Assembly (NCBI GenBank): GCA_963675155.1
Contig: OY775912.1
Span: forward strand, 296,058-360,057
Source: Anaerohalosphaeraceae bacterium
Lineage (GTDB): Bacteria; Planctomycetota; Phycisphaerae; Sedimentisphaerales; Anaerohalosphaeraceae
Reading direction: 5' to 3'
Length of the DNA: 64,000 nucleotides
The notes below the pieces were generated by a model, which made no database searches, had not been told where the DNA came from, and saw only the letters and a list, made by a program, of their open reading frames with translations. How positions within the stretch are numbered: position 1 is the first letter of the stretch; every line of letters starts with the position of its first letter. Shown one piece after another: positions 13,601 to 38,705 of this stretch. The translations under genes were made by a program, and so were the position numbers.

Positions 13601-15434
13601 TGTTCCCAATCCGCTTGAGTGGAGTTCATCGGCGGATTCCTATTTGGATTCTGATGCGACAAATCTCGTGAATTATAATATCAGTTCCTATCTCTACCTG
13701 CTTCAGGCTGGCGGTAATAATATTCTGGCAATTCACGGTCTCAACTCTGATTCTGGAAGTTCAGATTTTCTCATCTCTGCACAGCTTGAGGCTGGCGCCG
13801 TCAGCAGCGGTGGTCATACGCCTGGCGGCGAAATTTCACCCAGTGCTGTTGTATATGCCGATCCGATTACTTTGATGAAGAGTGAAAAGATCAAGGCTCG
13901 TTTAAAGAATGGATCCGATTGGGGGGCTTTGAACGAGGCGTGCTATTCGGTTGGTCCAGTAGGTGACAACCTGCGGATTACCGAGATCATGTATCACCCG
14001 GCCGATCCCAACCAGGAGTTCGTTGAGGTCCGGAACATTGGTGCGTCGACCATCAATCTGGCATGGGTTAAATTTACAGAGGGTATCGATTTCACCTTCC
14101 CCGATCTATCACTTGGAGCAGGTCAATATGCTGTTGTGGTTCGTAATCAGGCCGTCTTTGAAGCGTTGCACGGCACGGGAATAACCATTGCCGGACAGTT
14201 CAGCGGCGCACTGGATAACGGGGGTGAAGAAATCGTTCTGAAGGACGCATTTGGGGCTAAAATCCTCGATTTCGATTACAATGATAATTGGTATCCGATT
14301 ACGGATGGGGCTGGTTTCTCATTAAATATCATCAACTCGTCCAATCCGGATCCGAACAGTTGGGACGATAAAGATGCCTGGCAGGCAAGCAGTGTACTCA
14401 ACGGAAGTCCGGGAGCACACAATCCCGTCAATGTTGTTCCAAACGGCGCGATTGTCATTAATGAGATACTGACACATTCCAATGACTATCCGAATGACTG
14501 GATTGAGTTACATAATACGACCGGATCAGAAATCAGCATTGGAGGTTGGTTCCTAAGCGATAATTCAGATAATTTTAAAAAATATCAAATTGGTTCCGGG
14601 ACGTCCATTCCCGCATACGGTTATATCGTCTTTACCCAGGACGATAACTTTGGATCTTCGTCAAGCGATCCGGGCAGACTTGTCGGTTTTGGATTGAGTG
14701 AACTGGGAGAAGAGGTTTATCTTTCCAGCGGCTCTGGTGGAAATCTCGCCGGAGGTTACAGTGTTTGGCAGGATTTCGAAGCCGCTGAATGGGATATTTC
14801 CTTTGGAAGACATGTCAAGAGTACGGCGGAAAACAACGATGTTGATTTTGTTTTAATGCAAGCCATGACTTATGAAAACTCCAACTCCGGGCCGCTTATC
14901 CCCGATGTCATCATCAGCGAAATTATGTATAATCCATCGACGACTCATGACGAACTGGGCGAATATATCGAGTTGAAGAACAGAACCACTTCGACGGTTG
15001 ACCTCTTTGACCCGGCCAATCCGTCTAACACCTGGAAGTTTACAAAGGGAATTAATTATACATTTCCGCCAGGTGTCTCGATCTCTGCAGGAGAGCGGAT
15101 TCTTGTGGTTCGAACCGATCCGGAAATCTTCCGAGTGATCCACCCAACTATACCCGCAGGTGTGCAAGTTTTCGGTCCTTTTATCAATTCGAAGCTTGAA
15201 AATGATGGTGAAAAAATTGAACTTTCCAGACCGAGCAATCCGGAGCCCGGCGGTTTTGTTCCCTATATTCGTGTTGAGCAAGTCAATTACAGTGATGGTA
15301 CGCACCCGATTGGCAATGACCCGTGGCCGACAACCGCCGACGGTGAGGGCAATGCTTTGAGCCGAACTTCGGAAACCGGCTACTCCAATGATGTCAGTCA
15401 TTGGACGGCCGCCGCGCCGACTCCGGGACTGTGA
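10668..15434 (+). CDS. giant secreted CotH-domain protein with N-terminal dockerin-like repeats, CHB_HEX_C-like (YTTDGS) domains and >=4 lamin-tail domains
   Basis: Signal peptide from internal Met (MRMSCFRVASLVVLVFSLLTYAA). EF-hand-like DLDGNYYVDFEDLVLFAQQWMQ and GDVEGDDGVNLEDFALIAFNW. LTDs (LVINEVMASND...WIEIYNYGDDTVSLSGMYLRDD; RITEIMYHPADPNQEFVEVRNIG; IVINEILTHSND...WIELHNTTGSEISIGGWFLSDN; VIISEIMYNPST...YIELKNRTTSTVDLFD). IRYTTDGSIPS and GTIYYTTDGTDP motifs. CotH-like core (GIYVLMEKIKV...GGYILRVDK). Paralog of 524..4865. Confidence 0.7.
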   Translation: MRMSCFRVASLVVLVFSLLTYAASPVGDLDGNYYVDFEDLVLFAQQWMQYPDCYGAPGCGDVEGDDGVNLEDFALIAFNWQIRGEIALVINEVMASNDSTLEDPDEPGEYPDWIEIYNYGDDTVSLSGMYLRDDNNTWQIPAGISIEPDEYVLFWADDDDEQGDYHTTLKLGKSDDEVTLVSYDGETIVDSMSYSDQVTDVSYGRYPDASDDWYLMDAPSPELTNAMGMAGKVYFSSLGGTFTSSFSLTLSTTSPTAQIRYTTDGSIPSASSFPYTAPITISNSQTRRIRARAYDALLAPGPVHTEVYVPLAADIQTFTSNLPIVILDTHGSGISNTTYGEISSIFVDVDKDTGVSSMTDFSDFAGRGAAKIRGESSQAWPKKQYSLELWDENDMDAKASLLGMPSGSDWILNAPYGDKTLLRNVLAFKWSNDIENGFAAPGTKLVEVFLNDDGGNCSYADYNGIYVLMEKIKVSDNRVDIGSLDSGDIAEPDVTGGYILRVDKNNGQETFTTNANMVGSIQYYDPDETALSATQKSWIQNWLNTFETHLNASDFNDPLAGYAHYIDVENFIEYDMILELFKNADGFKLSTYFHKERNGKLRFGPQWDFNFSSGNTTNPDWWYPSYFSKASATEEGWFCDQPDFKVYSWHQRLLQDPDYMIRYADKWFEHREDKLSDAQITADIDTYYSLLTTNHAFAGGADNAADRNFAKWNILNNQEWCNYYFGYNAQLSVYDPYTGQTTQIPPEEREQANMPHTYHMETEWLKNWFNGEGTPTGSEWYQTDYSDRIGKLDALWQSDRNICMPPTLNINGTPMNLGGRVDLGDGLTMSSACAGTIYYTTDGTDPRTWTTVSNPGFAATLVAEDAAKAVLIPTETVSNDWKGGNEPFDDSTWTDFDFIAGKPGSVGYENSSGYQEFISYDVKNDLLGNNNTQSCLIRIPFFVDSAQLAEMTYLTLRVRHDDAFVAYINGIEVYRSSLVPNPLEWSSSADSYLDSDATNLVNYNISSYLYLLQAGGNNILAIHGLNSDSGSSDFLISAQLEAGAVSSGGHTPGGEISPSAVVYADPITLMKSEKIKARLKNGSDWGALNEACYSVGPVGDNLRITEIMYHPADPNQEFVEVRNIGASTINLAWVKFTEGIDFTFPDLSLGAGQYAVVVRNQAVFEALHGTGITIAGQFSGALDNGGEEIVLKDAFGAKILDFDYNDNWYPITDGAGFSLNIINSSNPDPNSWDDKDAWQASSVLNGSPGAHNPVNVVPNGAIVINEILTHSNDYPNDWIELHNTTGSEISIGGWFLSDNSDNFKKYQIGSGTSIPAYGYIVFTQDDNFGSSSSDPGRLVGFGLSELGEEVYLSSGSGGNLAGGYSVWQDFEAAEWDISFGRHVKSTAENNDVDFVLMQAMTYENSNSGPLIPDVIISEIMYNPSTTHDELGEYIELKNRTTSTVDLFDPANPSNTWKFTKGINYTFPPGVSISAGERILVVRTDPEIFRVIHPTIPAGVQVFGPFINSKLENDGEKIELSRPSNPEPGGFVPYIRVEQVNYSDGTHPIGNDPWPTTADGEGNALSRTSETGYSNDVSHWTAAAPTPGL

Positions 15435-21634: not shown

Positions 21635-23992
21635 ATGATGAAGGCATGCAATATTTTGACGGTATCGGTTTTGGCGGCGACGCTTACACTGGCCCCGGCG
21701 TATGGCCAAACCATTCTAATCGATTTTGGTAACGCTTCTTCGTGGCGTGGAGTTGACACGCCGAGTCCCGATGAAAACGGAAACTCCTGGAACTGCGTGT
21801 GGAGTGCCGCTTACTATCCCAACTTAATTGACATTGACGGAAATGTTACGCCCGTCGACTTTGGTTTTTCTTCTGCCGGCGGAACCGACAGCTATAACAG
21901 TCCTGCAGGTGTCACTTCTGATCCCGTTACTCAGGCAATGATTGACGCGACGGACATCAATGCCGCAGCCCTGGGCAACCTGGGTGTCAATGAGGCGGCA
22001 ATGGACTTCTACGATTCGTCGACATTTGAGATTCAAGGGTTGGATCCGACAAAAACCTATGATCTGACTTTTTTTGGATCACACAAGTACAGCGACGATG
22101 ACACGACGGTCTATTCGGTCTACACCGACAATACGCTTACCACTCTGGTCGACTTGGCCAGCCTTAATGTTCAGCAAAGCGGAAGTCCCTCGCTGCACAA
22201 TCGGGATATGGTTGTGACGATCACCGGACTGTCCCCGCAGGCTGCCAATAGCCTGTATATCAGGTTTACCGGCTCAAACGGAAATTTAGGCTATCTCAAC
22301 TGCATGCAGATCGAGGAAGTCTCCGGAGACATGACAACCAATCCCCTTCCCGGTGATGGTGAGACCGTCGCAATGCTCACAACGAATTTGATATGGAACC
22401 AGCCCAGTGAGTATTCTCCCATGAAGTATGTTCTCCGTTTTCGTGCCAATAATTCCAACTGGCTTGATACGGCCAACACAACTGTGGTGGACCCCGTGGT
22501 CGATCTTGATCTTGACGGCGATGTGTCCACAACCGAAGCTGCGGTGCCGGTCGCACTGGATTACAATACTGTCTATTATTGGAAAGTTACTGCATTTGAG
22601 TCCGCCGCTCCGTCTCCCATCGAACATGACGGGCCGGTCTGGTCGTTCACGACCGAAACAGACACTTCCAGCTCCCCAGTTCGCAAAAAGATAATGGCTC
22701 ATTACATGCCGTGGTATCAGTCGCAACCCATCAGCGGATACTGGGGCTGGCACTGGCATATGAACCATTTCAGTCCGCCGACCACCATTGCATCGCACTA
22801 CCATCCCCTCTTTGGGCCCTACGACTCCAGTGACCCGCACGTCTTAGCGTCTCAGTCGCTTTTGATGAAGTTCGGGGGAATCGACGGGATGATTGCCGAT
22901 TGGTACGGCATTGAGGATTTTTGGGATTACGGCCGCGTAAGGGACGCTACGAATGCCTTTGTCCCCTATATCAAGCAGGCCCAACTAGAATTTTCCATCT
23001 GCTATGAAGACCAGACCGTTGGCCATATGCTCAACAATGGTCACTTTGCAGACAGAAATGAGGCCGTTGCACATGGTGTAGAGGTTATGGAGTGGCTGGA
23101 CAACCACTATTTTAGTGACTCCTCGTACCTGAAAATAGACGGCAGGCCGGTCTTGCTTTGTTTTGGCCCGCAATTTTTTACATACAGTGAATGGGAGCTG
23201 TTGTTTGAGGCACCGGTTTCGCCGCCGCACTTTTTCCCGCTGAAGTATCACACCGCGCCAAACACCGGTGAATTTGACTGGCCGTCTCCGGGTGCCGGCA
23301 CCGAAGGGATTACCTCGAATCTCAACGCTTTTTACGACAGGGCTGCTTCTTTGGGATGGGATCATTACGTTGGCGGTGTCTTTCCCCGGTTTCATGATAT
23401 TTACGAAGAGGCCGGAATAGGGTCTTCTTACGGCTATATTGACGATCAGGATACGGCTACTTTCACCCAAACACTGGAAAGAGCAATCTTAAGCGATGCC
23501 GATATTGTTCAAATTGTGACGTGGAACGATTACGGAGAAGGCACGGTGATTGAGCCAACTGAGGAAGACAGCTATACGTACCTGGAAATTATTCAACAGT
23601 ATCGAACCCGTTATATTGATCCGAATTTTCCCTACACGGCTGCGGACCTGAGACTTCCCACAAGACTGTATGCGATGCGGCAGACCTACCAAGCCGATCC
23701 CGTAAAAATGACTCAGCTTGATTCCGTTGAAGCCTGTTTATTTGCCGACCAGCTGGCACAGGCTGAAATGCTGATGAATCAGATTGATTGCGACACTGTC
23801 ATTGTAGGAGATTTTAATGCCGACTGCAGGGTGAGCCTCTTCGACTTTGAGCTGTTATCCGATGCATGGCTCAGCGGGGCCGCTGATCCGAATTGGCGTC
23901 CCGAGGTTGACATCAGCGACCCCAAAGATGGTAAGATTGACATTCTGGATTTGCGTCAATTTGCTGAAAATTGGCTGGAAATCAATTTATGA
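21635..23992 (+). CDS. secreted protein: novel ~220-aa N-terminal domain (paralog family A) + Ig-like domain + GH99/GH71-like glycosidase domain + dockerin-like C-terminus
   Basis: Signal peptide MMKACNILTVSVLAATLTLAPAYG. N-domain shared with 26609 and 27500. GH99-like start pattern AHYMPWYQSQPISGYWGWHWHMNHFSPP...FGPYDSSDPHV...GIDGMIADWYG. C-terminal GDFNADCRVSLFDFELLSDAWL and DPKDGKIDILDLRQFAENWLE. Confidence 0.55.
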   Translation: MMKACNILTVSVLAATLTLAPAYGQTILIDFGNASSWRGVDTPSPDENGNSWNCVWSAAYYPNLIDIDGNVTPVDFGFSSAGGTDSYNSPAGVTSDPVTQAMIDATDINAAALGNLGVNEAAMDFYDSSTFEIQGLDPTKTYDLTFFGSHKYSDDDTTVYSVYTDNTLTTLVDLASLNVQQSGSPSLHNRDMVVTITGLSPQAANSLYIRFTGSNGNLGYLNCMQIEEVSGDMTTNPLPGDGETVAMLTTNLIWNQPSEYSPMKYVLRFRANNSNWLDTANTTVVDPVVDLDLDGDVSTTEAAVPVALDYNTVYYWKVTAFESAAPSPIEHDGPVWSFTTETDTSSSPVRKKIMAHYMPWYQSQPISGYWGWHWHMNHFSPPTTIASHYHPLFGPYDSSDPHVLASQSLLMKFGGIDGMIADWYGIEDFWDYGRVRDATNAFVPYIKQAQLEFSICYEDQTVGHMLNNGHFADRNEAVAHGVEVMEWLDNHYFSDSSYLKIDGRPVLLCFGPQFFTYSEWELLFEAPVSPPHFFPLKYHTAPNTGEFDWPSPGAGTEGITSNLNAFYDRAASLGWDHYVGGVFPRFHDIYEEAGIGSSYGYIDDQDTATFTQTLERAILSDADIVQIVTWNDYGEGTVIEPTEEDSYTYLEIIQQYRTRYIDPNFPYTAADLRLPTRLYAMRQTYQADPVKMTQLDSVEACLFADQLAQAEMLMNQIDCDTVIVGDFNADCRVSLFDFELLSDAWLSGAADPNWRPEVDISDPKDGKIDILDLRQFAENWLEINL

Positions 23993-24194
23993 TGAGAATC
24001 TCCTGATTGCGATAAGGTGTGTCAGTTCATTTCTTTATAGTACTCGATTATTGGCGTCTTGTTTCTAATGTGAGGCCTGAGATGGGATAGAGAAGGTAAA
24101 GTCGAAAAATTATGAAATAATTTAAAAAACGCAGGGTGTCAAATCTGACAAATCTGGAATATCTATATGAAGTACCTTTTTCCTGAGGAGGATT

Positions 24195-24746
24195 ATGGGT
24201 CATATAAATAATTCAACCAGCACCGAAGAACGTTCGAAAAGGTTCATCTCTTTGTTGATGCCTGTCCAGCGAAAAGTGTATGCTTATGTCGCTTATCACG
24301 TTCCCGATAAGAATAACTCCGATGACCTTTTTCAAGAAGTCGTCGCAACCCTATTAACCAAGTTTGACGATTACGAAGAAGGTACGAGCTTCCTGAAGTG
24401 GGCCATCACTGTTGCCAAATATAAGATTCTTTCTTTTCACCGAGATAACAAACGCATGAAGATTGTGTTTGATGAAGCCGACATGGACCAAATTTATATC
24501 GAAGCGCAGGAAAAGATTGAGTCGCTGGAGGAAGAGTCAAAGGCATTAACAGGATGCTTAGAGAAATTATCCGATAAGCAGCGAAGCTTGGTGAATTATC
24601 GATACGGCTATGAAATGACCTACCGTCAAATTGCAAAAAAACTCAATATTTCAATGCAATCGACATACAGAGCAATTTATCGTATCCATGGATCCCTCCT
24701 GAAATGTATTCATCTGTCATTGAAGTTCAGAGGTGTCAATGAATAA
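24195..24746 (+). CDS. ECF-type sigma-70 family sigma factor (paralog of 5329..5853)
   Basis: Region 2 (DDLFQEVVATLLTKFDDYEE...LKWAITVAKYKILSFHRDNKRMK). Region 4 (LVNYRYGYEMTYRQIAKKLNISMQSTYRAIYRIHGSL). RBS gaggagg. Overlaps the downstream anti-sigma. Confidence 0.85.
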   Translation: MGHINNSTSTEERSKRFISLLMPVQRKVYAYVAYHVPDKNNSDDLFQEVVATLLTKFDDYEEGTSFLKWAITVAKYKILSFHRDNKRMKIVFDEADMDQIYIEAQEKIESLEEESKALTGCLEKLSDKQRSLVNYRYGYEMTYRQIAKKLNISMQSTYRAIYRIHGSLLKCIHLSLKFRGVNE

Positions 24747-26466
24747 TAACGACTCATTTTTAGACAATTATCCCGAGTTCTTCCCTCTCATTGCAGACAG
24801 AGAGATGACCGATGAAGAGTTTGAAGTGGTTAAAGCTTTACTGAAAACCAATCAAGCGGCCCGAAACGCTTATTTTGACATGATTAACCTTGAAGTCTTG
24901 TTACGGGACTCAAAAGAGCTGGGGGAAGGATTTGAGGGAAACCCCTGTATTGACATGGATTTTTGGCGACTTCTGGCTCACGAAGAAGAAACAAAACCAG
25001 CCATTGAAATCCCCCCCCAACAGCCGCCCCGGGAGTTGATACAAAAGGTTATTTGGCCTCAGAAAAATAAATATAAAGTGAGTAAATTCAGCATTTTTGG
25101 AATTGCGATGAATGTTGCGGCGATCCTTTTTGTCGTTCTGTTTTTGAAGTTTGCTCCCCAGCGATTTCACGCCTTTGAGGTTGCAACTCTGGTTGATCAA
25201 TTGAATGTCAAATGGGCTCATCCCGATAAAATCCGGGGAAAAGGAAGCCGTTTATGGACCGATGAAGGGCTGTTGGATTTGAAACAGGGAATGGTTAAAA
25301 TCCGATATGACGACGGCGTCGACGTTGTGATTGAAGGACCGGCATTATTTGAAATTAACCAATCGCAGGTTTATCTTGAATACGGACGTTTATACGGCTG
25401 TGTTTCGAAGTCGGGCTTGGGATTTAGAGTGGAAACGCCCACGTCACAGTTTTTGGATCATGGAACTGAATTCGGCGTATTGGCTAATATTGACGGCTCC
25501 TCGGAATTGCATGTCATGGAAGGTAAAGTTGAATTATTTACCGGTTCCAGAGGCCAATTCAAAAGCTGTCAGATGGTGCCTGAAAAAAAGGCAATAAAGT
25601 ATAATGCGACGATCGATCAAGTCAACAAGATCCCTATTCAAAAAGAGGTCTTCGCTCGGTCTTTCAATTCCGAAAGCAAGATGGTCTGGCGAGGCAAGAT
25701 GCATCTCAATCTGGCCGATATCATCGGTGGCGGCAATGGTTTTGGAGATGGGGCAATCGATGCAGGAATCGATGCGACCACCGGAAAAACGCTGGACCGT
25801 CTTTTGAATTATAATCCATTTGAAGGTTCTGCGGGATATAAGGCGGTCAGCAGCAGTCCGTATATTGACGGTGTTTTTATTCCGGGTGCCGGTGACGGTC
25901 CAATCCCCATTACGTCGGAAGGATCGTATACGGCGATATTCCCGCATACAAGCGGAGCATTGTGGGGCTATATATTCAATGGGGCATTTCATCAGGGAAC
26001 TCCTGCAACCCAAACTCCACTGGAATTAGCGGGTGTTGTTTTTGGGACGCCGGATAATCCTGCGATCACCATCCATTCGAATCAGGGGGTTACGTTCGAC
26101 CTTTCTGAAATACGAAAGAGTCTGCCGGCGTTGTCGATAACAGGCTTTCGGTCGCTTGCAGGTATTTCACAAACAGTGCAGGATGTTTTGGAGAAAAAAG
26201 AAGGTGGGGCTACTGATATTTTGCCGGAATCTCAAAAGGGTTTTAACGCTGACAGGTCAAACGTTGAATTTTGGGTTTTTCTGGACGGAAAACAGGCGTT
26301 TTGCCAGAAAATATCCAGTGCTGACGAGGCTGCTGAACTGGAGATACCCATCGCAGATAATGTTCGATTTCTGACATTGGCGGTGACAGAATCCGATGAC
26401 TCCGTTTCGTATGACTGGGCGTTATTCGGCCGACCGGAGTTGATTTTGGAGTTGGCCCGGCAGTAG
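24733..26466 (+). CDS. FecR-family transmembrane anti-sigma factor (paralog of 5853..7541)
   Basis: TM helix FSIFGIAMNVAAILFVVLFL. FecR block (GFRVETPTSQFLDHGTEFGVLANIDGSSELHVMEGKVELF). Conserved C-terminal sensor domain (VEFWVFLDGKQ...VRFLTLAVTESDD). Confidence 0.75.
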   Translation: MSMNNNDSFLDNYPEFFPLIADREMTDEEFEVVKALLKTNQAARNAYFDMINLEVLLRDSKELGEGFEGNPCIDMDFWRLLAHEEETKPAIEIPPQQPPRELIQKVIWPQKNKYKVSKFSIFGIAMNVAAILFVVLFLKFAPQRFHAFEVATLVDQLNVKWAHPDKIRGKGSRLWTDEGLLDLKQGMVKIRYDDGVDVVIEGPALFEINQSQVYLEYGRLYGCVSKSGLGFRVETPTSQFLDHGTEFGVLANIDGSSELHVMEGKVELFTGSRGQFKSCQMVPEKKAIKYNATIDQVNKIPIQKEVFARSFNSESKMVWRGKMHLNLADIIGGGNGFGDGAIDAGIDATTGKTLDRLLNYNPFEGSAGYKAVSSSPYIDGVFIPGAGDGPIPITSEGSYTAIFPHTSGALWGYIFNGAFHQGTPATQTPLELAGVVFGTPDNPAITIHSNQGVTFDLSEIRKSLPALSITGFRSLAGISQTVQDVLEKKEGGATDILPESQKGFNADRSNVEFWVFLDGKQAFCQKISSADEAAELEIPIADNVRFLTLAVTESDDSVSYDWALFGRPELILELARQ

Positions 26467-26608
26467 GGGAGGACTTGATGAGTGGTTAAAAATATGATGT
26501 TAATAAAGGTTGACAGAGATGAGAGAATTGAGCCGTCTCGCTCACACAACCACCGGATCCAATCGTAGGTCCATAAAAATTGTATAACCGGCTCAGTATT
26601 GGAGGAAC

Positions 26609-27376
26609 ATGATGGAAACACGAAATATGATGAACGTATCAATTTTGGCAGTATTACTTGTATTTGGACTGAACCTGGTTGCTCCGGTTTATGGTGTAAC
26701 CGTTCTGGTCGATTTTGGTAACAACGACTCGTATGGCGGAGTCACCGCGCCAAGTCCCGATGGAAACGGTAACTACTGGACCAGTGTCTGGAGCGGCGCC
26801 TACTATCCCGACATGGTTGACATTGACGGCAATGCCACCACCATCGACTTCGGCTTTGCCACCCCCGGCGGAACCGACAGCTACAACGGACCTGCCGGTG
26901 TCACTTCCCAGCCCGACCCAACTCAAGCGAATATTGACGCGACGGATATCGATGCCGTTGCGCTGGGCAACCTTGGCGTCAATGAGGCCGCGATGGACTT
27001 CTATACGAATTCAACATTTGAGATCCAGGGTTTGGATCCGACCAAAACCTATAATCTGACCTTCTTCGGTTCCCACAAGTGGGGTGGTCTCACAACCGTG
27101 TATTCGATTTATACCGACAACACCTATTCAACCTTGGTCGATTCAGCCAGTCTCGACGTCATGGATGCGGCCAGCAACTGGCTGCATAATCGCGATACAG
27201 TGGTGACGATCAGCGGACTGGCACCGCAGACGAGCGATATCCTGTATGTCAAGTTCGAAGGGATAAATGCCACTGAAGGTTATCTCAACGCTATGCAGAT
27301 CGAAGAAGTTCCCGAACCGGCAACGATGATATTGCTTTTGGCAGGCGGACTGCTGGCGCGTAAACGCCGACAGTAG
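26609..27376 (+). CDS. PEP-CTERM-anchored protein carrying only the novel family-A N-terminal domain
   Basis: Signal peptide. ~85% nt identity to the N-domains of 21635 and 27500. Ends MQIEEVPEPATMILLLAGGLLARKRRQ*, a classic PEP-CTERM (PEP + TM + basic tail). Confidence 0.7.
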   Translation: MMETRNMMNVSILAVLLVFGLNLVAPVYGVTVLVDFGNNDSYGGVTAPSPDGNGNYWTSVWSGAYYPDMVDIDGNATTIDFGFATPGGTDSYNGPAGVTSQPDPTQANIDATDIDAVALGNLGVNEAAMDFYTNSTFEIQGLDPTKTYNLTFFGSHKWGGLTTVYSIYTDNTYSTLVDSASLDVMDAASNWLHNRDTVVTISGLAPQTSDILYVKFEGINATEGYLNAMQIEEVPEPATMILLLAGGLLARKRRQ

Positions 27377-27499
27377 ATCGAATTTACAGCCGCCGGACTG
27401 ATGAGCATATTTACGGATCAGCAAACAGGATTGATGATATCAGGGAGTCAATAAATAGATCAGTCTAAGGTGCAAAATTGTCAAGAACAGGAGAGAACA

Positions 27500-28966
27500 A
27501 TGAAAACATGGAACATGATGACAGTATCAGTTTTAGCCATACTGCTTGCAGTCGGCTTGAACCTACCTGCCCCGGCATACGGCGAAACCGTTCTCATTGA
27601 CTTTGGGAACGATTCCTCGTGGGGCGGAGTTACCACGCCGAGTCCCGATGTAAACGGCAATTACTGGACGAGCGTCTGGAGCGACGCTTACTATCCCGAC
27701 ATGGTTGACATTGATGGTAACCCTACCACCATCGACTTCGGCTTTGCCCCGGGCGGTGCAGGCGGAACCGACAGCTACAACGGCCCGGCCGGTGTCACGT
27801 CCCAACCCGACCCCACTCCGGCGAACATTGCCGCGACGGATATCGATGCCGTTGCCCTCGGCAACCTGGGCGTCAATGAAGCGGCAATGGACTTCTATAC
27901 CTCGTCGAGTTTTGAGATTCAGGGCCTGAATCCGGACAAAACCTACAACCTGACGTTCTTTGGGTCGCATAAGTACAGTACCGATGCCACAACGGTGTAT
28001 GAGATCTATACCGATAACACCTATACCTCCATGATTGCTTCCGCCAACCTCGACATCTCAGATGCTCCACAAAGTGCATCCCACAATCGGGATATGGTGG
28101 CTACGATCAATGATCTCGACCCCCAGGATGATAATATCCTGTATGTCAAGTTTATCGGTATAGATGGTGGTTTCGGCTATCTCAACTGCATGCAGATCGA
28201 AGAAGCCCTTGGTGTTAAAGCACGGAATCCGGTACCTCGTGATGGAGCAACGGTTGTACCGGTCACAACGAATTTAAAATGGAACCGGCCGAGCGAGTAT
28301 TCACCTGCCAAGTCTGTTCTTCGTTTCCGGCCCGCTGACACTTCAGATCCCAACTGGATCGTGGTCGATCCGGTGGACGATCTTGACCTGGATGGCGATT
28401 TGGCCACGATCGAAGCAGCGGTGCCGATGGTGCTGGACTTCAACACGAAGTATGATTGGAAAGTTACTTCTTTTAAGCTTAATGACCCCAATGAGTTTGA
28501 GGGGCCGATCTGGTCGTTTACCACTGAAGCGGAACTGCGGGTAGATGCCGGTCCCAGCATCATAACCTGGCTGCAGGACGGCAGTGTCAACGTTGATTTA
28601 AACGGATCGATCACCTATCCGGATACTTTGAGCAGTATACTATGGTCTGTGGTGGATAAGCCTGTCACGGCCACGGTTGACATTGATGATGACACCTCAG
28701 CAGTCACGTCGGCGTCGCTTGATGTAACCGGCGACTATGTCCTGAAATTGTGGGCTCAGGACGATAGTGTGCCGCTCGAAGATGAAGACACTATTGAGAT
28801 CCATGTGTTCGCAGACGCCTGCCTGGCGGCCAAAGCCAATCCCGCCGGCTACACGCCTCTGTTGCATGATTCTACCGATGATTGCCGGGTAGACCTTGAA
28901 GACTTCGTGCAGTTCGCTGCCGACTGGCTCACAGACCTCTCGCTGACGGAAAACCTTGAATATTAG
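27500..28966 (+). CDS. secreted protein: family-A N-terminal domain + Ig/fn3-like domains + dockerin-like C-terminus
   Basis: Signal peptide MKTWNMMTVSVLAILLAVGLNLPAPAYG. Shared N-domain. Shared Ig-like segment (WNRPSEYSPAKSVLRFRP...YDWKVTSF). C-terminal DDCRVDLEDFVQFAADWL. Confidence 0.6.
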   Translation: MKTWNMMTVSVLAILLAVGLNLPAPAYGETVLIDFGNDSSWGGVTTPSPDVNGNYWTSVWSDAYYPDMVDIDGNPTTIDFGFAPGGAGGTDSYNGPAGVTSQPDPTPANIAATDIDAVALGNLGVNEAAMDFYTSSSFEIQGLNPDKTYNLTFFGSHKYSTDATTVYEIYTDNTYTSMIASANLDISDAPQSASHNRDMVATINDLDPQDDNILYVKFIGIDGGFGYLNCMQIEEALGVKARNPVPRDGATVVPVTTNLKWNRPSEYSPAKSVLRFRPADTSDPNWIVVDPVDDLDLDGDLATIEAAVPMVLDFNTKYDWKVTSFKLNDPNEFEGPIWSFTTEAELRVDAGPSIITWLQDGSVNVDLNGSITYPDTLSSILWSVVDKPVTATVDIDDDTSAVTSASLDVTGDYVLKLWAQDDSVPLEDEDTIEIHVFADACLAAKANPAGYTPLLHDSTDDCRVDLEDFVQFAADWLTDLSLTENLEY

Positions 28967-29056: not shown

Positions 29057-30649
29057 TTATATATTGTTGATTTCTTTCCATGAAATGCTGAATTTAGCTA
29101 AATATTTCTTTAATCGGTCTGCATCATTGGGCCGGGCCTTTTGTGTTCTGGAGACATTGAAAAGCTGTCGTCCTGCCTCAGATAGACTTTTGGCTTTTGA
29201 ACATACTTTTATGACATGAGCCAGTTGCGGCCTGTCAAATTCGTCAATTTTAGCCAGTCTTTCTTTTCCGAGGAGTTTTTCCAAGAGATCGGTATTGTTA
29301 TCTTGTCTGGCCGATTGCCAGGATTTAAGGAGTCTCTGGATTTCTTCTTCCACAATATCTTCGCAGATTCGGCCTCCGGGGGCCAGTGTGGCCATGCGGG
29401 TAATCGCCCCGATCAGATCACGGAAATTCGATTTCCACATTGCTTGGCCCGACGTACTGAATGACAGGAAGCGTCTTTGAGCTTCTTTATTAAATCTGAC
29501 ATGCGTGCCGGCTTTACTGGCGTATTGATCCAGTTCGTACTGGATATTAGGCTCGATGTCTTCGCGGCGATCCTTCAAACCCGGCAGGTGAAACGTCCAC
29601 AGGTTGATTCTGGCCAGCAGGTCTTCGCGGAATTGCCCGGAATTGATATTGGCCTGTAAATCTCTATTGGTCCCACAGATCAGCTGAAAGTCGCTGCTGA
29701 CCTCTTTGTCAGATCCAACGGGCAGGAATTTCTTTTCTTCGATGGCTCGAAGCAGCATCGATTGCTCCTCAATGCCCAGTTCGCCAACTTCATCGAGGAA
29801 TAGAATACCGCCATCGGCTGTTTTTAAGAGACCCTCTCTGGCCTGTACAGCACCTGTAAACGCTCCTTTTGTATGCCCAAAGAGGGCTGACATCGCTGCG
29901 TCACCCCGAATGGTTGCACAGTTGACCTCTACAAAATCCCCTCTGAGTTTTTTGTGCGTCTTTTTAAGCTCAAAGATTCGTTGGGCTAGCTGGGATTTAC
30001 CGGCTCCGGTAGGTCCCATGAGCAGAATAGGATCTGTTGTCCGGGCTCCAACATGCTCGATCCGTTCAATCAGGGCATTGAAATTCTTATTCTTTGTTTG
30101 GATACCGGATTTTAAAAATGAGATATCGTCACACAACTGCTGCTTGAACCGCATCGCGATTCGGTCATACTTGGACAGGTCTAAATCGATAATTTGATAA
30201 CTGCCCGGTCCCTGATCTGTTTCTCGTTTTGGAGGGCTTGTTTGCAGCAGTCTGCCGGGGAAGTAGCGAGATTCGGTTAACAGGAACTCGCATATCTGAG
30301 AAACGTGTGTCCCTGTTGTGATATGGACTAAATACTCTTCATGGTCAGGGTCAAAGTCATAGTCTTTCGAAAAGTCATGGAGGACGCCGTACACCTCCTG
30401 GAAGTCCCAGGGATTATCCCAGTCAATGACATGAGGGACCACCTTTGTTTCCGGGGAAACAAGACCGATGTCTTTGATCACGCTTTTAGCGATCTTCTCG
30501 AATTTCCGTTGAAAGAGTAATTCAAAACGATCGACCAGCAGTTCTTCGTGTTGGCAGATTGAGACCGTTGGCCGCCAGAAGTTCCAGCGATCCGGTCCTT
30601 GCCCGCGGTCGAGATTAGGCCCCAACAATCCGATGACTACATTCTTCAT
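29057..30649 (-). CDS. rtcR: RtcR: sigma-54-dependent transcriptional activator with N-terminal CARF-like domain
   Basis: AAA+ sigma-54 interaction domain with GAFTGA (HTKGAFTGA), Walker A GPTGAGKS, ILFLDEVGEL. Long N-terminal non-receiver domain typical of RtcR CARF. Divergent from the rtcA/rtcB block. Confidence 0.85.
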   Translation of the reverse strand: MKNVVIGLLGPNLDRGQGPDRWNFWRPTVSICQHEELLVDRFELLFQRKFEKIAKSVIKDIGLVSPETKVVPHVIDWDNPWDFQEVYGVLHDFSKDYDFDPDHEEYLVHITTGTHVSQICEFLLTESRYFPGRLLQTSPPKRETDQGPGSYQIIDLDLSKYDRIAMRFKQQLCDDISFLKSGIQTKNKNFNALIERIEHVGARTTDPILLMGPTGAGKSQLAQRIFELKKTHKKLRGDFVEVNCATIRGDAAMSALFGHTKGAFTGAVQAREGLLKTADGGILFLDEVGELGIEEQSMLLRAIEEKKFLPVGSDKEVSSDFQLICGTNRDLQANINSGQFREDLLARINLWTFHLPGLKDRREDIEPNIQYELDQYASKAGTHVRFNKEAQRRFLSFSTSGQAMWKSNFRDLIGAITRMATLAPGGRICEDIVEEEIQRLLKSWQSARQDNNTDLLEKLLGKERLAKIDEFDRPQLAHVIKVCSKAKSLSEAGRQLFNVSRTQKARPNDADRLKKYLAKFSISWKEINNI

Positions 30650-30802: not shown

Positions 30803-31000
30803 ACATAGTAGATCAAGTAATTAACGCTCTTATGAAAATTAAAGATGAAGTTTCCGCCGGGCCAGCGGCATACCAGTGACAGCCATGCTGTTTCATTGCG
30901 TATGTACCGTGAGTGGGTTCTAACGAAGGTGGAACTATTCGAGCGGCGAGAATTGGAAAATGCGACCAATGTCAATTCTTTCGATTCCCGCATCGGATCC

Positions 31001-31085
31001 CAATGGTTAGCTCAGAGGGTAGAGCATCGGGCCGTTAACCCGAAGTCGTGGGTTCGATTCCCACACCGACCGCCGCGAGAGCGGC
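31001..31085 (+). ncRNA. tRNA-like element with canonical D-arm, anticodon arm (GTT, Asn-type) and T-arm but no good 7-bp acceptor stem, followed by a GNRA-capped hairpin
   Basis: TAGCTCAGAGGGTAGAGC D-arm. TCGGG-CCGTTAA-CCCGA anticodon arm. GTGGG-TTCGATT-CCCAC T-arm. The 5' strand CAATGGT pairs only 4/7 with the 3' strand ACCGACC. Then GCCGC-GAGA-GCGGC. Confidence 0.4.
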
Positions 31086-31448
31086 TCAAAGAAGGGCTCG
31101 AAGGAAACATTTGGTCTATCTGGCAGTTGACAGGTTTTTCTGACTCACCTCGTTGGCCTGTCAACACCATTTGTAAACGCTCTGCAGTATGCGGATACCG
31201 CTTACTTCTGGCCAAGAGCAAAGACGTCGATGACGAACAAGCAATGACGGATTTCGCTGGTAATAGGAAATCTGAAATTGCGACCTTCCGAATCGCCTCT
31301 TACCTTGTTCAAAGTGAACTTAAGCATGCTCCGCGTGAAAGATGGGGCAATAGTCAAATGTTTCCTGAAAGCCTCTTATGACAAATGCCCGGCGATAAAT
31401 GAAAGAATAAATACAAGGTGAGAAAATAGAATAAAAAGGAGAATTAAA

Positions 31449-32618: not shown

Positions 32619-32692
32619 TGCTCCGTGGCCCAACTGGAAGAGGCAGCGGGTTTTGAACCCGTTCGTTGCAGGTTCGATTCCTGCCGGAGCTG
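32619..32692 (+). tRNA. tRNA-Gln (anticodon TTG)
   Basis: Manual fold: acceptor TGCTCCG/CGGAGCT (U1.U72 mismatch). Anticodon arm GCGGG-TTTTGAA-CCCGT. T-arm GCAGG-TTCGATT-CCTGC. Confidence 0.65.
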
Positions 32693-32697
32693 AATGA

Positions 32698-32772
32698 CTG
32701 GATGTAGGGCAGCCTGGGTAGCCTACTCGCCTTGGAAGCAAGACGTCGTTGGTTCGAATCCAACCATCCAGA
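32698..32772 (+). tRNA. tRNA-Pro (anticodon TGG)
   Basis: Acceptor CTGGATG/CATCCAG perfect. D-arm GGGCAGCCTGGGTAGCCT. Anticodon loop CTTGGAA. T-arm GTTGG-TTCGAAT-CCAAC. Confidence 0.7.
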
Positions 32773-32774
32773 CT

Positions 32775-32847
32775 GTGACCGTAGCTTAATTGGTAAAGCA
32801 CCAGATTGTGATTCTGGGGAGTACGGGTTCGAGTCCCGCCGGTCACC
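32775..32847 (+). tRNA. tRNA-His (anticodon GTG); no encoded G-1
   Basis: Acceptor GTGACCG/CGGTCAC, discriminator C. Anticodon arm CCAGA-TTGTGAT-TCTGG. T-arm ACGGG-TTCGAGT-CCCGC. The nucleotide at -1 is T. Confidence 0.65.
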
Positions 32848-32867
32848 CTTTGAAAAGAGAATGTTGA

Positions 32868-32938
32868 GCGTTGACGGTATAATGGCAACATACGGGCTTG
32901 CCAAGTCTGTGATGGGAGTTCGAATCTCCCTCGACGCA
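32868..32938 (+). tRNA. tRNA-Gly (anticodon GCC)
   Basis: Acceptor GCGTTGA/TCGACGC. Anticodon loop TTGCCAA; the anticodon stem has two G-U pairs. T-arm GGGAG-TTCGAAT-CTCCC. Confidence 0.6.
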
Positions 32939-32941
32939 ATC

Positions 32942-33012
32942 GGCCTCGTCGTCTAGTGGCAGGACACCAGATTTTCGATCTGTGAACGTGAGTTTGATTC
33001 TCACCGAGGCTA
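32942..33012 (+). tRNA. tRNA-Glu (anticodon TTC)
   Basis: D-arm TCGTCTAGTGGCAGGAC typical of tRNA-Glu. Anticodon loop TTTTCGA. T-arm GTGAG-TTTGATT-CTCAC. Acceptor GGCCTCG/CGAGGCT (G1.U72). Confidence 0.6.
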
Positions 33013-33018
33013 TTAATC

Positions 33019-33092
33019 GGCTCTGTAGCCCAATTGGCAGAGGCGGCGGACTTAGAATCCGCTCAGTGTAGGTTCGACTCCTACCGGGGCTA
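33019..33092 (+). tRNA. atypical tRNA: Gln-like body with anticodon TAG (would read CUA Leu codons) and a short class-I variable loop
   Basis: D-arm GCCCAATTGGCAGAGGC and T-arm GTAGG-TTCGACT-CCTAC closely resemble the tRNA-Gln at 32619. Anticodon arm GCGGA-CTTAGAA-TCCGC. 5-nt variable loop, unlike class-II tRNA-Leu. Acceptor has three G-U pairs. Confidence 0.45.
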
Positions 33093-33097
33093 GTAAA

Positions 33098-33169
33098 GGA
33101 ACGGTAGCTGAGATGGTTTAGCGAAAGCCTGAAAAGGTTCAGACGTTGGTTCGAACCCATCCCGTTCCA
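33098..33169 (+). tRNA. tRNA-Phe-like (anticodon GAA) with weak anticodon stem and one T-stem mismatch; possibly a pseudo-tRNA
   Basis: Acceptor GGAACGG/CCGTTCC perfect. Loop CTGAAAA. The anticodon stem AAAGC/GGTTC has only 3 Watson-Crick pairs. Confidence 0.45.
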
Positions 33170-33254
33170 CTTAATGGAAATATAATTTGAATAACCTAAT
33201 TAAGATGGATACAATCTCATAGACAACAATAAAGGAGTTTAAAGGAATACAGCA

Positions 33255-36279: not shown

Positions 36280-36938
36280 TGACAAATTGGTTACAAGTTA
36301 CCTCAGGGCGTGGACCAGATGAATGCTGTTGGGTTGTGGCCAGGGTTGTCGAGGCAATCACTCAAGATGCGTCGGCAAATGGCTATAACTTAAATGTATT
36401 GGAAGTCGTGCCGGGAAGTAAGCCGGATTTGTTTAAGTCAGCACTGCTTTCTATTGAAGGCGACGGTTTATCTGAATTCTTGTCTCAATGGGAAGGGACG
36501 ATTCAGTGGATTGGAAAAAGTCAATTCCGTCCCAAGCATAAGCGGAAAAACTGGTTTGTGGGTGTCACATCTTATGAAGCTCCTGAAGAAGTTGATTATA
36601 GCTGCAGTGAATTTCGATTTGAAAGCATGCGATCATCCGGTCCCGGCGGTCAGCACGCTAACAAAATCGAATCGGCCGTGCGTGTCACCCATATGCCCAC
36701 GGGAATTAATGCCATCGCACAGGAAGAACGATCCCAGCATATGAATCGAAAATTGGCATTAAGCCGGTTGCATAAAAAACTCCAGCAACAAAAGCAGAGT
36801 ACTGAAATGCAGCTCCAGCAGGAACGATGGGATGAACATAATGCCTTGGAAAGAGGCAACCCCATCCGAGTGTATGAAGGTCTCAAATTCAAGCTAAAAA
36901 GAATAGACAAAAATAAAGAGTTAAGGATTATTCGATGA
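36279..36938 (+). CDS. prfH: PrfH-type (RF-H) peptide chain release factor homolog with GGQ motif, lacking the RF domain 1
   Basis: SSGPGGQHANKIESAVRVTH GGQ domain. N-terminal SGRGPDECCWVV...GTIQWIG...RPKHKRKNWF pattern characteristic of the RF-H family. ~219 aa. Encoded immediately after rtcB, as in described rtcB-prfH pairs. Confidence 0.75.
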   Translation: MTNWLQVTSGRGPDECCWVVARVVEAITQDASANGYNLNVLEVVPGSKPDLFKSALLSIEGDGLSEFLSQWEGTIQWIGKSQFRPKHKRKNWFVGVTSYEAPEEVDYSCSEFRFESMRSSGPGGQHANKIESAVRVTHMPTGINAIAQEERSQHMNRKLALSRLHKKLQQQKQSTEMQLQQERWDEHNALERGNPIRVYEGLKFKLKRIDKNKELRIIR

Positions 36939-38705
36939 GATAGAGATTTTTTGGATGATTAATTGTCCCGATTCTGCTGTTGTACACTGGCTATGATAAT
37001 ACCATGGTTTTTTCCATAGCTTGATCGCCAAACCGGTTACTGCTTGCGGGCGGGCCAGCATTCCCAATCGGCCCGATGCCGGAATTGTATAGGTCCGGGT
37101 TTTAGAGTCAATGTCTTCGATAAATGCATATTGTGATTGTCCCTGATCGTCGAACAGATAAACTCGCAGCCCGCCGAAGTCGTCTTTTGAAATTGCCGAA
37201 CAGGTGATTGTCAGTTCATCAAGATTCCTTGCGTCAATAGGTGGGAATTCAAATTTACATTCAACTTCGCTCTCTTTTTCAGCACTCAAATCGAAATCAA
37301 TGAGTAATCCTTTTGGCGTTTGGCTGGTATTTATTTTACCCGCTGCCCATGTATTCGTATTTATTGGCAGTTTTTCTTCCTGGGTAAAATCCAGAACAAT
37401 ATTTGGAGATTTGCCCGCAGATACAATAACAGGTTTTGGTTCTGATGCGTCTCGCCGAGCCCATTTTTTCAGCATCGCTGGTTTTTTGGAAAAATAGGTA
37501 TTTAATTTAGCCATGCCGTTTTGGACGAGGGGGTCGCCGACAAATGATTTTCGAATCATACCGTCTTCGGTGTAGTTGGCCAGTGACAAAAATAACATTG
37601 CCTGGTCCAGACACAGATAGCGGTTATCGACGAGACCGCTATTCAGATCAACGGAATCCCGGAATCCGAATGCGGTATCATTTAAAATGGGTTTACGAAG
37701 CCCCATGGCTTCAAGCTGTCGCAAATTTTTGATGACATGTTGTGGGTAAAAGTCAATGACTAACGCTGATGCATGCGGTGTGACGACCCACCACGGCAAA
37801 AATCCGCCTTCGGTGTAACCCTTCCCCGGGATGTTGCAGTTTGACCATCCCCACACCTTCAGTCCGCGTTGTTGAGATTCGCGAATCTGATGCCAGGCCA
37901 GGTCTGCGATCGAACAGCCGATCTCTGTTGTCCGCTCATCCAGAAAGATGGAGTCGATGGCCTGCATGAACAGTCCACCCATGTGATAGCCCGGTTCGAA
38001 AAATTCCAGTCCGTCGGCCTGAATTTTTCGGCGGTGTGTTTCGTACCATACATTTGGCGGGACATCACCACTGGCAATCATATAGAAAACGACGAGTCTG
38101 CAATCAGACGCCAGAAAGAAACGCCCTGAGCCAACGGGCTGATCTTTAATGAGGTCATATCCCCAACATGTATTGCCTGTTTGACTGTCATAAAGCCGGT
38201 TCCACTCAACCCGGTTAATAATTGCGGATGCTTCGTCATTTAGTTCCGGAAAAAATTGCCGTACCAGGATTAGGCCCGTAATCAATTTATTAAAGTCTGA
38301 GGTGGCTAAAACGGGTTCCGCGATTTCTGTTTTTCCGCCGACATCGACCCAGTTGGGCAAGAAGCCGTGTTTGCTTTCCAAACGGTTGACGGATCGGATA
38401 ATTTTTCGTATGCGCGTAATCGCTTCGTCTCTTGAAAGGTAGTCGAGTTTATACGCGGGGCCGATTGAGGCAAGATACAGGCCGATATTGGTGGTGTTGG
38501 TCTTTCCGCCGCCGGTCTGGGAGTCGGTTGGAAAACCGGTCTCCTTTGCCAGATGGCTGTCCAGATAATCCCAGGTTTCTCTCATGATGGTTTGCAGGTA
38601 TCGCCGATTGGCCTCTGAAATAGACCGAGATTGGTCAGTGGTTGTTTGAGCCGCTGAGACATTCAATGTCATTAACATCATTATGCACAGGATTATCTGT
38701 TTCAT
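36921..38705 (-). CDS. secreted six-hairpin glycosidase-like protein (glucoamylase-like/DUF3131-type; paralog family B)
   Basis: Signal peptide MKQIILCIMMLMTLNVSAAQ. Shares the W..LYD..G...GYD...FY.IA....P..WY pattern with 45554, 54904 and 57975. Convergent with and overlapping the prfH end. Confidence 0.5.
   Translation of the reverse strand: MKQIILCIMMLMTLNVSAAQTTTDQSRSISEANRRYLQTIMRETWDYLDSHLAKETGFPTDSQTGGGKTNTTNIGLYLASIGPAYKLDYLSRDEAITRIRKIIRSVNRLESKHGFLPNWVDVGGKTEIAEPVLATSDFNKLITGLILVRQFFPELNDEASAIINRVEWNRLYDSQTGNTCWGYDLIKDQPVGSGRFFLASDCRLVVFYMIASGDVPPNVWYETHRRKIQADGLEFFEPGYHMGGLFMQAIDSIFLDERTTEIGCSIADLAWHQIRESQQRGLKVWGWSNCNIPGKGYTEGGFLPWWVVTPHASALVIDFYPQHVIKNLRQLEAMGLRKPILNDTAFGFRDSVDLNSGLVDNRYLCLDQAMLFLSLANYTEDGMIRKSFVGDPLVQNGMAKLNTYFSKKPAMLKKWARRDASEPKPVIVSAGKSPNIVLDFTQEEKLPINTNTWAAGKINTSQTPKGLLIDFDLSAEKESEVECKFEFPPIDARNLDELTITCSAISKDDFGGLRVYLFDDQGQSQYAFIEDIDSKTRTYTIPASGRLGMLARPQAVTGLAIKLWKKPWYYHSQCTTAESGQLIIQKISISSNNP

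Follow-up and report, generated by a model that had tools for sequence, protein, structure and literature searches.

Three neighbouring genes on the plus strand of a 64-kb stretch of Anaerohalosphaeraceae DNA (contig OY775912.1, positions 296,058 to 360,057; the stretch as a whole is hereafter referred to as the window) encode secreted proteins, here designated A, B and C, that have in common an N-terminal domain of approximately 205 amino acids. This domain belongs to a large and so far unmodelled sequence family that is mainly confined to the PVC group (Planctomycetota, Verrucomicrobiota, Kiritimatiellota). The overall explanation that we favour, and consider probable, is that the domain is a non-catalytic carbohydrate-binding module (CBM), malectin/CBM57-like in fold, that tethers enzymes and surface proteins to alpha-glucan. 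As a preliminary description of this DNA had proposed, open reading frames (ORFs), signal peptides and profile matches agree in identifying three paralogs with a shared secreted N-terminal domain, and each protein continues differently beyond it: A into an immunoglobulin (Ig)-like domain, a glycoside hydrolase (GH) barrel and a dockerin-like tail, B into a PEP-CTERM sorting signal, and C into an Ig-like domain, a weakly matched PKD-like domain and a dockerin-like repeat (Table 1).

An unmodelled sequence family

When a profile of the three copies was compared with the six-frame translation of the window, only A, B and C were recovered (E 1e-138 to 1e-146; next match, E 1.9). An indexed search against proteins clustered at 90% identity matched 487 proteins, with named members belonging to the Phycisphaerae, Anaerohalosphaeraceae and Botrimarina; the best 120 of the 487 matches share 59-84% identity with B, and most of them have a length of 250-265 amino acids. 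An exhaustive profile search, carried out on representatives of 50%-identity clusters, returned 985 representatives at E<=1e-3 and 155 at E<=1e-30, the largest family proteins being 3,534 amino acids long with up to seven matched stretches. Among the best 150 representatives, 129 contain at least one full-length copy of the domain, 38 of these contain two to five, and the domain is N-terminal in 107. In an alignment of 46 members, which also served for structure modelling, for a Pfam scan extending down to E 10 and as the profile for hhalign, a PEP-CTERM signal is detectable in 38 sequences. Within the family, the motifs DFG, PD.NGN.W, TDSYNGPAG, FFGSHK, HNRD and GYLN are strongly conserved, and 32 alignment columns, rich in Asp, Asn and Gly, are invariant. 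Invariant polar residues are D7, D23, D62, N65, D102, Q112 and N166, and H128, K129, H165, R167 and D168 are nearly so. The conserved pattern given in the preliminary description is essentially correct, save that two positions called fixed vary in one copy.

It had also been stated that the domain could not be assigned to a known CBM or Pfam family, and systematic scans bear this out. Specifically, neither Pfam nor NCBIfam offers a model for the domain in A, B or C, nothing lies over it in the Pfam scan of the 46 relatives, and the CBMs modelled in Pfam (CBM_6, CBM_35, F5_F8_type_C, Laminin_G_3 and others) give no match over it in either set. Weak Pfam matches that recur among members are limited to Glyco_hydro_36C and fn3 (best E 0.056 and 0.048, respectively), for both of which the region covered was not reported. 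A profile search of all PDB sequences produced noise only (E >= 0.044), and neither this search nor hhalign revealed, at the level of sequence, a confident match to a CBM or DUF family with a known ligand. Full-text searches of the literature on GH99 and PEP-CTERM proteins in Planctomycetes and on malectin/CBM57 yielded no description of the domain.

One further candidate identity, that of the NCBIfam PEP-CTERM families (NF038126 FxDxF and others), was considered and rejected: B reaches 25.7 bits where the cut-off is 50, and the domain alone gives no match. Full-length members match many unrelated PEP-CTERM families of NCBIfam, and these matches vanish once the tail is removed; their spread and their disappearance indicate that they originate from the sorting signal.

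A predicted malectin/CBM57-like fold

An AlphaFold2 model of the B copy (mean pLDDT 91.9, pTM 0.91) consists of a beta-sandwich with three short helices and is of the malectin/CBM57-like type. Its nearest predicted fold relatives include malectin (2k46), the ectodomains of FERONIA and ANXUR, and the C-terminal domain of Bacteroides GH2 beta-glucuronidases (5UJ6/6D50, 6ED1); Foldseek pointed the same way with weaker matches. Another protein of related build is the uncharacterised YxiM of Bacillus subtilis (2o14), in which an N-terminal beta-sandwich is joined to an SGNH hydrolase and which has no sequence-level match to the family.

Tests of membership in the malectin sequence family itself came out negative. 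Neither PF11721 (Malectin) nor PF12819 (Malectin_like) was found at E<=1 in A, B or C, or at E<=10 in the 46 members, and hhalign, used to compare the 46-sequence profile with human malectin (a query sequence checked beforehand against PDB 9ikp and 6s7t), returned a probability of 0.4% over 13 aligned columns. Unlike malectin and CBM57, the family has motifs of its own, is restricted to the PVC group and often occurs as a stand-alone PEP-CTERM protein, and no sequence kinship between the two is detectable. The novelty claimed in the preliminary description thus applies to the sequence family, for which no library model exists, and not to the fold, whose predicted class is known; the family is new with respect to Pfam, NCBIfam and PDB sequences, the CBM families of dbCAN/CAZy, recently created ones included, lying outside the comparison. 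Malectin binds Glc-alpha-1,3-Glc, and its presence among the nearest relatives of the modelled fold is suggestive for the ligand, yet is no evidence of a common specificity.

Fusion partners and gene neighbourhoods

A Pfam scan of 77 multi-domain representatives revealed partners of two kinds. Firstly, domains associated with surface display are common, namely PATR in 11 representatives, dockerin in 8, PEP-CTERM in 7 and several Ig-like families. Secondly, catalytic partners include CatAgl_D1 (alpha-1,3-glucanase, GH87), GDSL esterases and the pectate-lyase fold, in 3 representatives each, as well as GH99, WbsX and GH71, with matches in 2 each. The closest relative of A, a protein of 1,078 amino acids from another metagenome-assembled genome (MAG; locus L008, 5833-9066, plus strand), comprises the domain, an Ig-like domain, CatAgl_D1/D2 (a GH87-type alpha-1,3-glucanase), PKD and dockerin, and it follows that the unit of domain plus Ig-like module sits on two unrelated catalytic folds. 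Two further GH87-type fusions are known (P0171 and P0219), and P0140 has the architecture of A.

A survey in which one genome per species was scanned yielded 62 loci, 39 of them long (>=15 kb), from Planctomycetota (Phycisphaerae, Pirellulales) and Verrucomicrobiota (Chthoniobacter, Pedosphaera, Methylacidiphilaceae), as well as from one genome of the Pontiellaceae and one MAG of the Hydrogenedentales. Across these loci tandem domain genes are the rule and true fusions of domain and hydrolase occur in four, and a homolog of the catalytic domain of A lies within 10 kb in 41 of the 62 loci and in 32 of the 39 long ones. The gap between the domain gene and this GH71/99-like gene has a median of 1.3 kb and is <=3 kb in 35 of 41 cases, and the two genes share a strand equally often (35/41). 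GH71/99-like genes are rare in genomes, and for this reason the linkage is unlikely to be a matter of chance; within the window, A is the only such gene.

The arrangement of these loci varies with lineage. An Anaerohalosphaeraceae relative encodes, in this order, the GH71/99-like enzyme, an extracytoplasmic function (ECF) sigma factor, an NPCBM anti-sigma factor, a domain protein of 253 amino acids and a protein of 485 amino acids, and there the glycosidase has no N-terminal module. In Botrimarina, as in another genome of Pirellulales type, a GntR/LacI-type regulator is followed by a domain-PEP-CTERM protein, a second domain protein, a DUF1559 pilin-like protein, a GH99-annotated enzyme and a major facilitator superfamily (MFS) transporter. 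The commonest other neighbours overall are GntR/Peripla_BP_3 regulators, DUF1559/N_methyl proteins, GH97, GH65, CatAgl and components of MFS or ABC transport. GH97 is found in 10 loci of Planctomycetota type and GH65 in 14 of Verrucomicrobiota type, one or the other being present in 19 of the 39 long loci; both families act on alpha-glucosides.

The linked GH71/99-like hydrolase

The (beta/alpha)8-type barrel of A exceeds the Pfam cut-off for WbsX (34.8 bits) and falls short of those for GH71 (PF03659, 32.2 bits versus 34) and GH99 (PF16317, 25.3 versus 33); an unmarked GH71 match is on record for the L001 ortholog. The barrel is 31% identical (E 1e-54) to the Botrimarina GH99 enzyme, indicating that the linked enzymes constitute one family. 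When a profile of 16 of these enzymes was compared with PDB sequences, full-length matches were obtained to BtGH99 (E 1e-20), human MANEA (E 4e-17) and BxGH99 (E 2e-13), and no glycosidase family other than GH99 was matched over its full length.

The catalytic residues point elsewhere than to GH99. EWHE is the signature of GH99 and DYGE that of GH71, in which the first acid is almost exclusively Asp and all characterised enzymes are alpha-1,3-glucanases, according to the two sources from which these motif definitions are taken (PMC12394665, PMC13421300). The motif (W/F)ND(Y/F)GEG is present in 37 of 40 linked enzymes, where the GH99 counterpart is NEWHEG; A has WNDYGEG, so that its barrel possesses the GH71-type DYGE dyad and lacks the EWHE motif. 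In sequence, the barrel of A runs straight into the dockerin-like tail, and fungal GH71 enzymes have a C-terminal beta-sandwich packed on the barrel.

A precedent for such an enzyme is found in Prevotella melaninogenica, whose GH71/99-like enzyme is described as a single barrel that is nearer to GH99 in sequence and carries the DYGE motif (PMC13421300). It is encoded in a putative polysaccharide-utilisation locus (PUL) with a GH87 mutanase and a GH97 enzyme and was studied against streptococcal alpha-glucan biofilm; it was inactive on yeast cells and very weakly active on streptococcal biofilm glucan, and its preferred substrate was left undetermined (PMC13421300). The trio of GH87, GH97 and GH71/99-like enzymes recurs around the domain in PVC loci, and a single-barrel DYGE enzyme is common to both systems. 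Unlike the PVC loci, the Prevotella locus is a Bacteroidetes-type PUL, and no module resembling the shared domain is mentioned in the portion of the report at hand (PMC13421300). GH87 and GH71 both hydrolyse alpha-1,3-glucan, and CBM24, which binds alpha-1,3-glucan and is frequent among fungal GH71 enzymes (PMC12394665), offers a model for the equivalent targeting role proposed here for the domain; the two belong to different families.

The hydrolase data also bear on an alternative in which the module targets alpha-mannan or N-glycan-type substrates and the linked hydrolases are endo-alpha-1,2-mannanases. That the hydrolase profile matches only GH99 structures, that Pfam calls the Pirellulales enzymes Glyco_hydro_99 and that the malectin-like fold is tied to N-glycan biology would all be accommodated by such a function, which is nonetheless improbable given that all linked enzymes have aspartate in the first catalytic position (DYGE/DFGE), a residue almost exclusive to GH71 alpha-1,3-glucanases and foreign to the EWHE motif of GH99, and given that GH92, GH76, GH125 and GH38 are missing from the top 25 neighbour families in which GH97, GH65 and GH87 are found. 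The inactivity on yeast cells of the single studied DYGE enzyme argues in the same direction.

Proposed function and ligand of the domain

That the domain binds glycans at all is quite likely, judging from its modelled fold and from the company that its genes keep. The DYGE motif of the linked hydrolase, taken together with the GH87, GH97 and GH65 partners, suggests an alpha-glucan as the target, and among possible linkages alpha-1,3 most readily fits. We lean modestly towards alpha-glucan as the ligand; the narrower assignment to alpha-1,3-glucan is tentative and somewhat more apt to fail than to hold. The proposal of the preliminary description that the domain represents a new carbohydrate-binding or surface-display module is compatible with the predicted fold, the fusion partners and the gene context, with the reservation, given above, that the fold is not new.

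The family, its predicted fold, its architectures and its gene linkage are direct results of the analysis, from which sugar binding, the identity of the ligand, surface anchoring and regulation are deduced. According to the favoured explanation, the domain would be deployed in two ways. In the first, it would form a non-enzymatic protein, either stand-alone, exported via Sec and anchored to the cell surface by PEP-CTERM, as in B, or with added Ig, PKD and dockerin-like parts, as in C. In the second, it would direct endo-acting enzymes to their substrate, the enzyme being a GH71/99-like DYGE barrel, as in A, or, in close relatives, a GH87 alpha-1,3-glucanase. The surface proteins would capture the polymer and the GH71/99-like enzyme would cut it, and in other lineages MFS or ABC transporters together with GH97 or GH65 enzymes may complete the breakdown.

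Proteins of the B and C type would, in this capacity, act like the surface glycan-binding proteins (SGBPs) of Bacteroidetes PULs. SGBPs of the SusE/SusF type are likewise small, secreted, surface-anchored, non-catalytic beta-sandwich proteins that often occur as tandem paralogs, and the domain genes, too, adjoin the endo-acting enzyme, the transporter and the regulator of a glycan-utilisation cluster. The comparison is one of working mode and not of family membership: the fold family differs, PEP-CTERM/exosortase takes the place of a lipid anchor, and DUF1559 pilin-like proteins and MFS/ABC transporters are found instead of a SusC/SusD pair. To our knowledge, Planctomycetes and Verrucomicrobia are without SusC/D systems.

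Several observations weigh against the role in alpha-glucan capture. The one enzyme of the GH71/99-like DYGE clade that has been studied was only very weakly active. Cassettes of the type found in the Phycisphaerae window have no adjoining GH97, GH65 or transporter gene, and among long loci as a whole only about half contain GH97 or GH65. At the level of sequence, no bridge connects the family to a characterised CBM. Conservation exceeds what is usual for such modules and could reflect a structural metal site, a conserved protein partner or catalysis. Finally, many members are PATR autotransporter-like or giant surface proteins that have no enzyme domain, which fits a general adhesin.

This last point is central to the alternative that the domain is a general surface adhesin or a protein-protein scaffold, for example one that receives the dockerin-like tails of A and C in the manner of a cohesin, B being the anchor. 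Tandem repeats, giant proteins, PATR repeats, Ig-like domains, the high sequence conservation and the presence of dockerin-like tails in the same cassette would all be explained in this way; we give this alternative a small chance of being correct, similar to that of the mannan alternative. It is very unlikely that the domain has catalytic activity of its own towards this polymer, for example as a beta-sandwich lyase, hydrolase or esterase, even though it has many invariant polar residues and some beta-jelly-roll folds are catalytic. Equally hard to sustain is the notion that the module binds beta-glucan (laminarin) as a functional part of the cluster directly upstream of A, which at 9.2-21.5 kb encodes two GH16 enzymes, one GH30 enzyme and a protein with a pectate-lyase fold, given that this cluster has its own ECF/FecR pair (5329-7541) and that elsewhere the domain travels with GH71/99-like, GH97, GH65 and GH87 genes, GH16 and GH30 being outside the 25 commonest neighbour families. 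The mannan and beta-glucan ligands envisaged in the preliminary description are, on these grounds, less likely than alpha-glucan.

In its fullest form, the favoured explanation can be extended to a joint one, in which the domain is the founding member of a new alpha-1,3-glucan CBM family (for glucan of nigeran, mutan or fungal-wall type), the stand-alone, PEP-CTERM-anchored proteins are the PVC counterpart of Bacteroidetes SGBPs, a phylum-spanning alpha-1,3-glucan cassette is organised around the GH71/99-like DYGE clade, and, in Phycisphaerae, an ECF/NPCBM trans-envelope switch and a structured leader of B act as successive layers of control. That all of these elements hold together is speculative and, on balance, unlikely.

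The three genes of the window

The shared domain, put at about 220 amino acids in the preliminary description, measures approximately 205, or approximately 230 when the signal peptide is included, and ends in MQIEE in all three copies (nucleotides 22318, 27307 and 28204). The nucleotide identity of about 85% reported there was not reproduced: in codon-based alignments the three pairs of domains are 72.2%, 72.8% and 75.9% identical in nucleotide sequence, 67-75% identical in amino acid sequence and 58-61% identical at third codon positions. A plain nucleotide alignment leaves the overall identity unchanged, and it is only in the best 120-nucleotide windows that values of 82-89% are reached (B versus C, 89%).

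The recent duplication proposed on the basis of that identity is not upheld by a distance tree. In this tree C groups with C-type proteins (~485-520 amino acids) of loci L001, L007 and L009-L011, and the B-type proteins (~253 amino acids) of the same genomes form a second group, just outside which the B of the window branches. A, in turn, groups with the 1,078-amino-acid L008 protein, whose domain is 79% identical and nearer to that of A than are those of B or C. Since A, B and C fall into separate lineages, each with orthologs in other genomes, they are old paralogs and not recent duplicates.

All three signal peptides are of Sec type and end in ...AP(A/V)YG, and ribosome-binding sites are recognisable as GGGAGAG directly 5' of the ATG of A at 21635 and AGGAGA 5' of C. 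The Ig-like modules of A and C are 51% identical (E 3e-31), and no Pfam model exceeds its threshold over that of A. The dockerin-like tail of A does not pass the Pfam cut-off (PF00404 Dockerin_1, E 0.066, 13.9 bits versus 22.9); the hydrolase family profile gives weak matches to cellulosomal dockerins in the PDB search, and the dockerin of the L008 relative passes Pfam with 27.1 bits. The putative repeat in C is 41% identical to the first repeat of A over 27 amino acids (E 1.7e-4, pairwise) and has no Pfam match. The C-terminus of B comprises a PEP motif, a hydrophobic helix and a basic cluster, and passes TIGR02595 (22.6 bits, cut-off 16) while falling slightly short of Pfam PF07589 (19.5 bits, cut-off 20.7). 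No exosortase family was detected in Pfam scans of the ORFs of the 64-kb window.

Table 1. Features of the A, B and C genes and of the associated regulatory elements (positions in the window)
Feature	Position	Strand	Basis or detail
Protein A	21635-23992	+	ORF, 785 aa
A, signal peptide (aa 1-24, ...APAYG/Q)	21635..21706	+	read from sequence
A, copy of shared domain (aa 25-228)	21707..22318	+	profile and alignment
A, Ig/Fn3-like linker domain, common to A and C	22325..22663	+	pairwise alignment
A, catalytic barrel, GH71/99-like, DYGE motif (WNDYGEGTVIEP)	22670..23800	+	Pfam, family profile, motif
A, dockerin-like tail, two repeats	23807..23989	+	weak Pfam Dockerin_1, below cut-off
ECF sigma factor	24195-24746	+	TIGR02989 (Rhodopirellula/Verrucomicrobium subfamily), 135.6 bits, cut-off 124.55; Sigma70_r2, r4_2
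Anti-sigma factor	24733-26466	+	N-terminal anti-sigma region, one transmembrane segment, FecR, C-terminal NPCBM-type domain
Putative structured leader 5' of B	26514..26612	+	outer 6-bp stem GAGCCG/CGGCTC, inner 10-bp hairpin
Protein B	26609-27376	+	ORF, 255 aa
B, signal peptide (aa 1-29)	26609..26695	+	read from sequence
B, copy of shared domain (aa 30-233), used for modelling	26696..27307	+	
B, PEP-CTERM sorting signal (VPEPATMILLLAGGLLARKRRQ) and stop codon	27308..27376	+	TIGR02595
Protein C	27500-28966	+	ORF, 488 aa
C, signal peptide (aa 1-28)	27500..27583	+	read from sequence
C, copy of shared domain (aa 29-235)	27584..28204	+	profile and alignment
C, Ig/Fn3-like domain, common to A and C	28211..28534	+	pairwise alignment
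C, PKD-like domain, weak	28589..28807	+	K319L-like_PKD, E 0.0093, 16.4 bits, cut-off 27
C, putative single dockerin-like repeat (DDCRVDLEDFVQFAADWL)	28853..28933	+	tentatively placed by similarity to first repeat of A

Regulation of the cassette

The preliminary description placed all three genes downstream of an ECF sigma/anti-sigma pair. Such a pair is present, its two genes overlapping by 14 nucleotides, and B and C do lie downstream of it; A lies upstream, so that the pair stands between A and the other two genes. The anti-sigma gene product matches FecR (PF04773, 27.2 bits, cut-off 24) and NPCBM (32.7 bits, cut-off 23.9). Because its C-terminus is of this NPCBM, carbohydrate-binding type, the earlier suggestion that the anti-sigma factor senses the ligand of the domain is plausible; counting against it as a general rule, the pair accompanies the cassette in only 7 of the 62 loci, all of Phycisphaerae type and with the same gene order (L001-L004, L009-L011), and no shared promoter motif was detected. 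The regulator found elsewhere among the loci is of GntR/LacI type.

In five loci, the GH, sigma and B genes were found to share no ECF-type promoter dyad in their upstream regions, and a simple scan for sigma-70 promoters and terminators gave sites no more numerous than in shuffled sequence. Given the lack of a common dyad, the argument for sigma control of A, B and C is one from synteny, from which we infer that the embedded ECF sigma factor probably controls the cassette in the lineage of the window.

A leader of approximately 100 nucleotides 5' of B is conserved in six loci (the window, L001, L007 and L009-L011), with an invariant outer stem. Two of its 17 predicted pairs show compensatory changes among the six sequences, which represent about four lineages. 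The leader has no Rfam match, and its covariance model, applied to 1.08 Mb of related loci, found only the six Phycisphaerae loci from which it was built. Evidence that the element is structured is thin; a promoter plus leader is one possibility and an operator another.

A second ECF sigma/FecR anti-sigma pair is encoded separately, at 5329-5853 and 5853-7541 (plus strand), and is followed by a 455-amino-acid protein that belongs to no Pfam family (7665-9032). Downstream of it are genes for GH16, CotH/Lamin-tail domain (LTD), a protein that combines a pectate-lyase fold with an SGL domain, GH30 and GH16-CBM6. The region 5329-9032 (plus strand) and the genes that follow look like a separate beta-glucan cluster with a sensor of its own.

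Other features of the window

Very large secreted proteins of 1,122 and 1,605 amino acids, with a CotH kinase-like domain and multiple Lamin-tail domains, are encoded at 524-4865 and 10617-15434 (plus strand) and are accompanied by an LTD protein of 347 amino acids. A locus of beta-1,2-glucan type occupies 44458-62602 (plus strand) and comprises a LacI regulator, three PF10091 'glucoamylase' enzymes (two with PA14), an SOGP-type glycoside phosphorylase, an MFS_2 transporter, a GH2 enzyme and an N_methyl pilin-like protein; a fourth, weaker PF10091 match lies outside it, at 36921-38705 on the minus strand. The same locus contains a 225-amino-acid PEP-CTERM protein (52110-52787) followed immediately by a 666-amino-acid PKD/LamG protein, a pair that mirrors the layout of B and C (a small PEP-CTERM protein, then a larger secreted one) with a different domain.

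Seven tRNA genes (Gln, Pro, His, Gly, Glu, Leu, Phe) are arrayed in tandem at 32619-33170 (plus strand), between an SPFH gene and rtcA/rtcB, and the gene for the sigma-54 activator RtcR lies divergently at 29057-30649. Just downstream of the divergent RtcR region, within an 'ORF' of no known family (30845-31381), is a partial tRNA-like match at 31005-31067 (plus strand; 53 bits, model positions 5-66) that was not called by ARAGORN and that might be a tRNA-like RNA of the RNA-repair operon.

Implications

The favoured explanation overturns no current idea; should it prove correct, it would extend a well-known principle to a new family and to less-studied bacteria. Alpha-1,3-glucan is a polymer found in the cell walls of fungi and in dental biofilms, and a module that binds it could serve as a probe or as an enzyme-targeting tag. 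A handle would likewise be gained on what the GH71/99-like DYGE clade acts on, a point left undetermined by the 2026 Prevotella study. A PVC-wide family of approximately 1,000 clusters at 50% identity would join the catalogue of carbohydrate-binding modules, a function would be provided for hundreds of proteins now labelled 'hypothetical' or 'PEP-CTERM protein', and with it would come a means of approaching the capture of polysaccharides at the surface of Planctomycetes and Verrucomicrobia.

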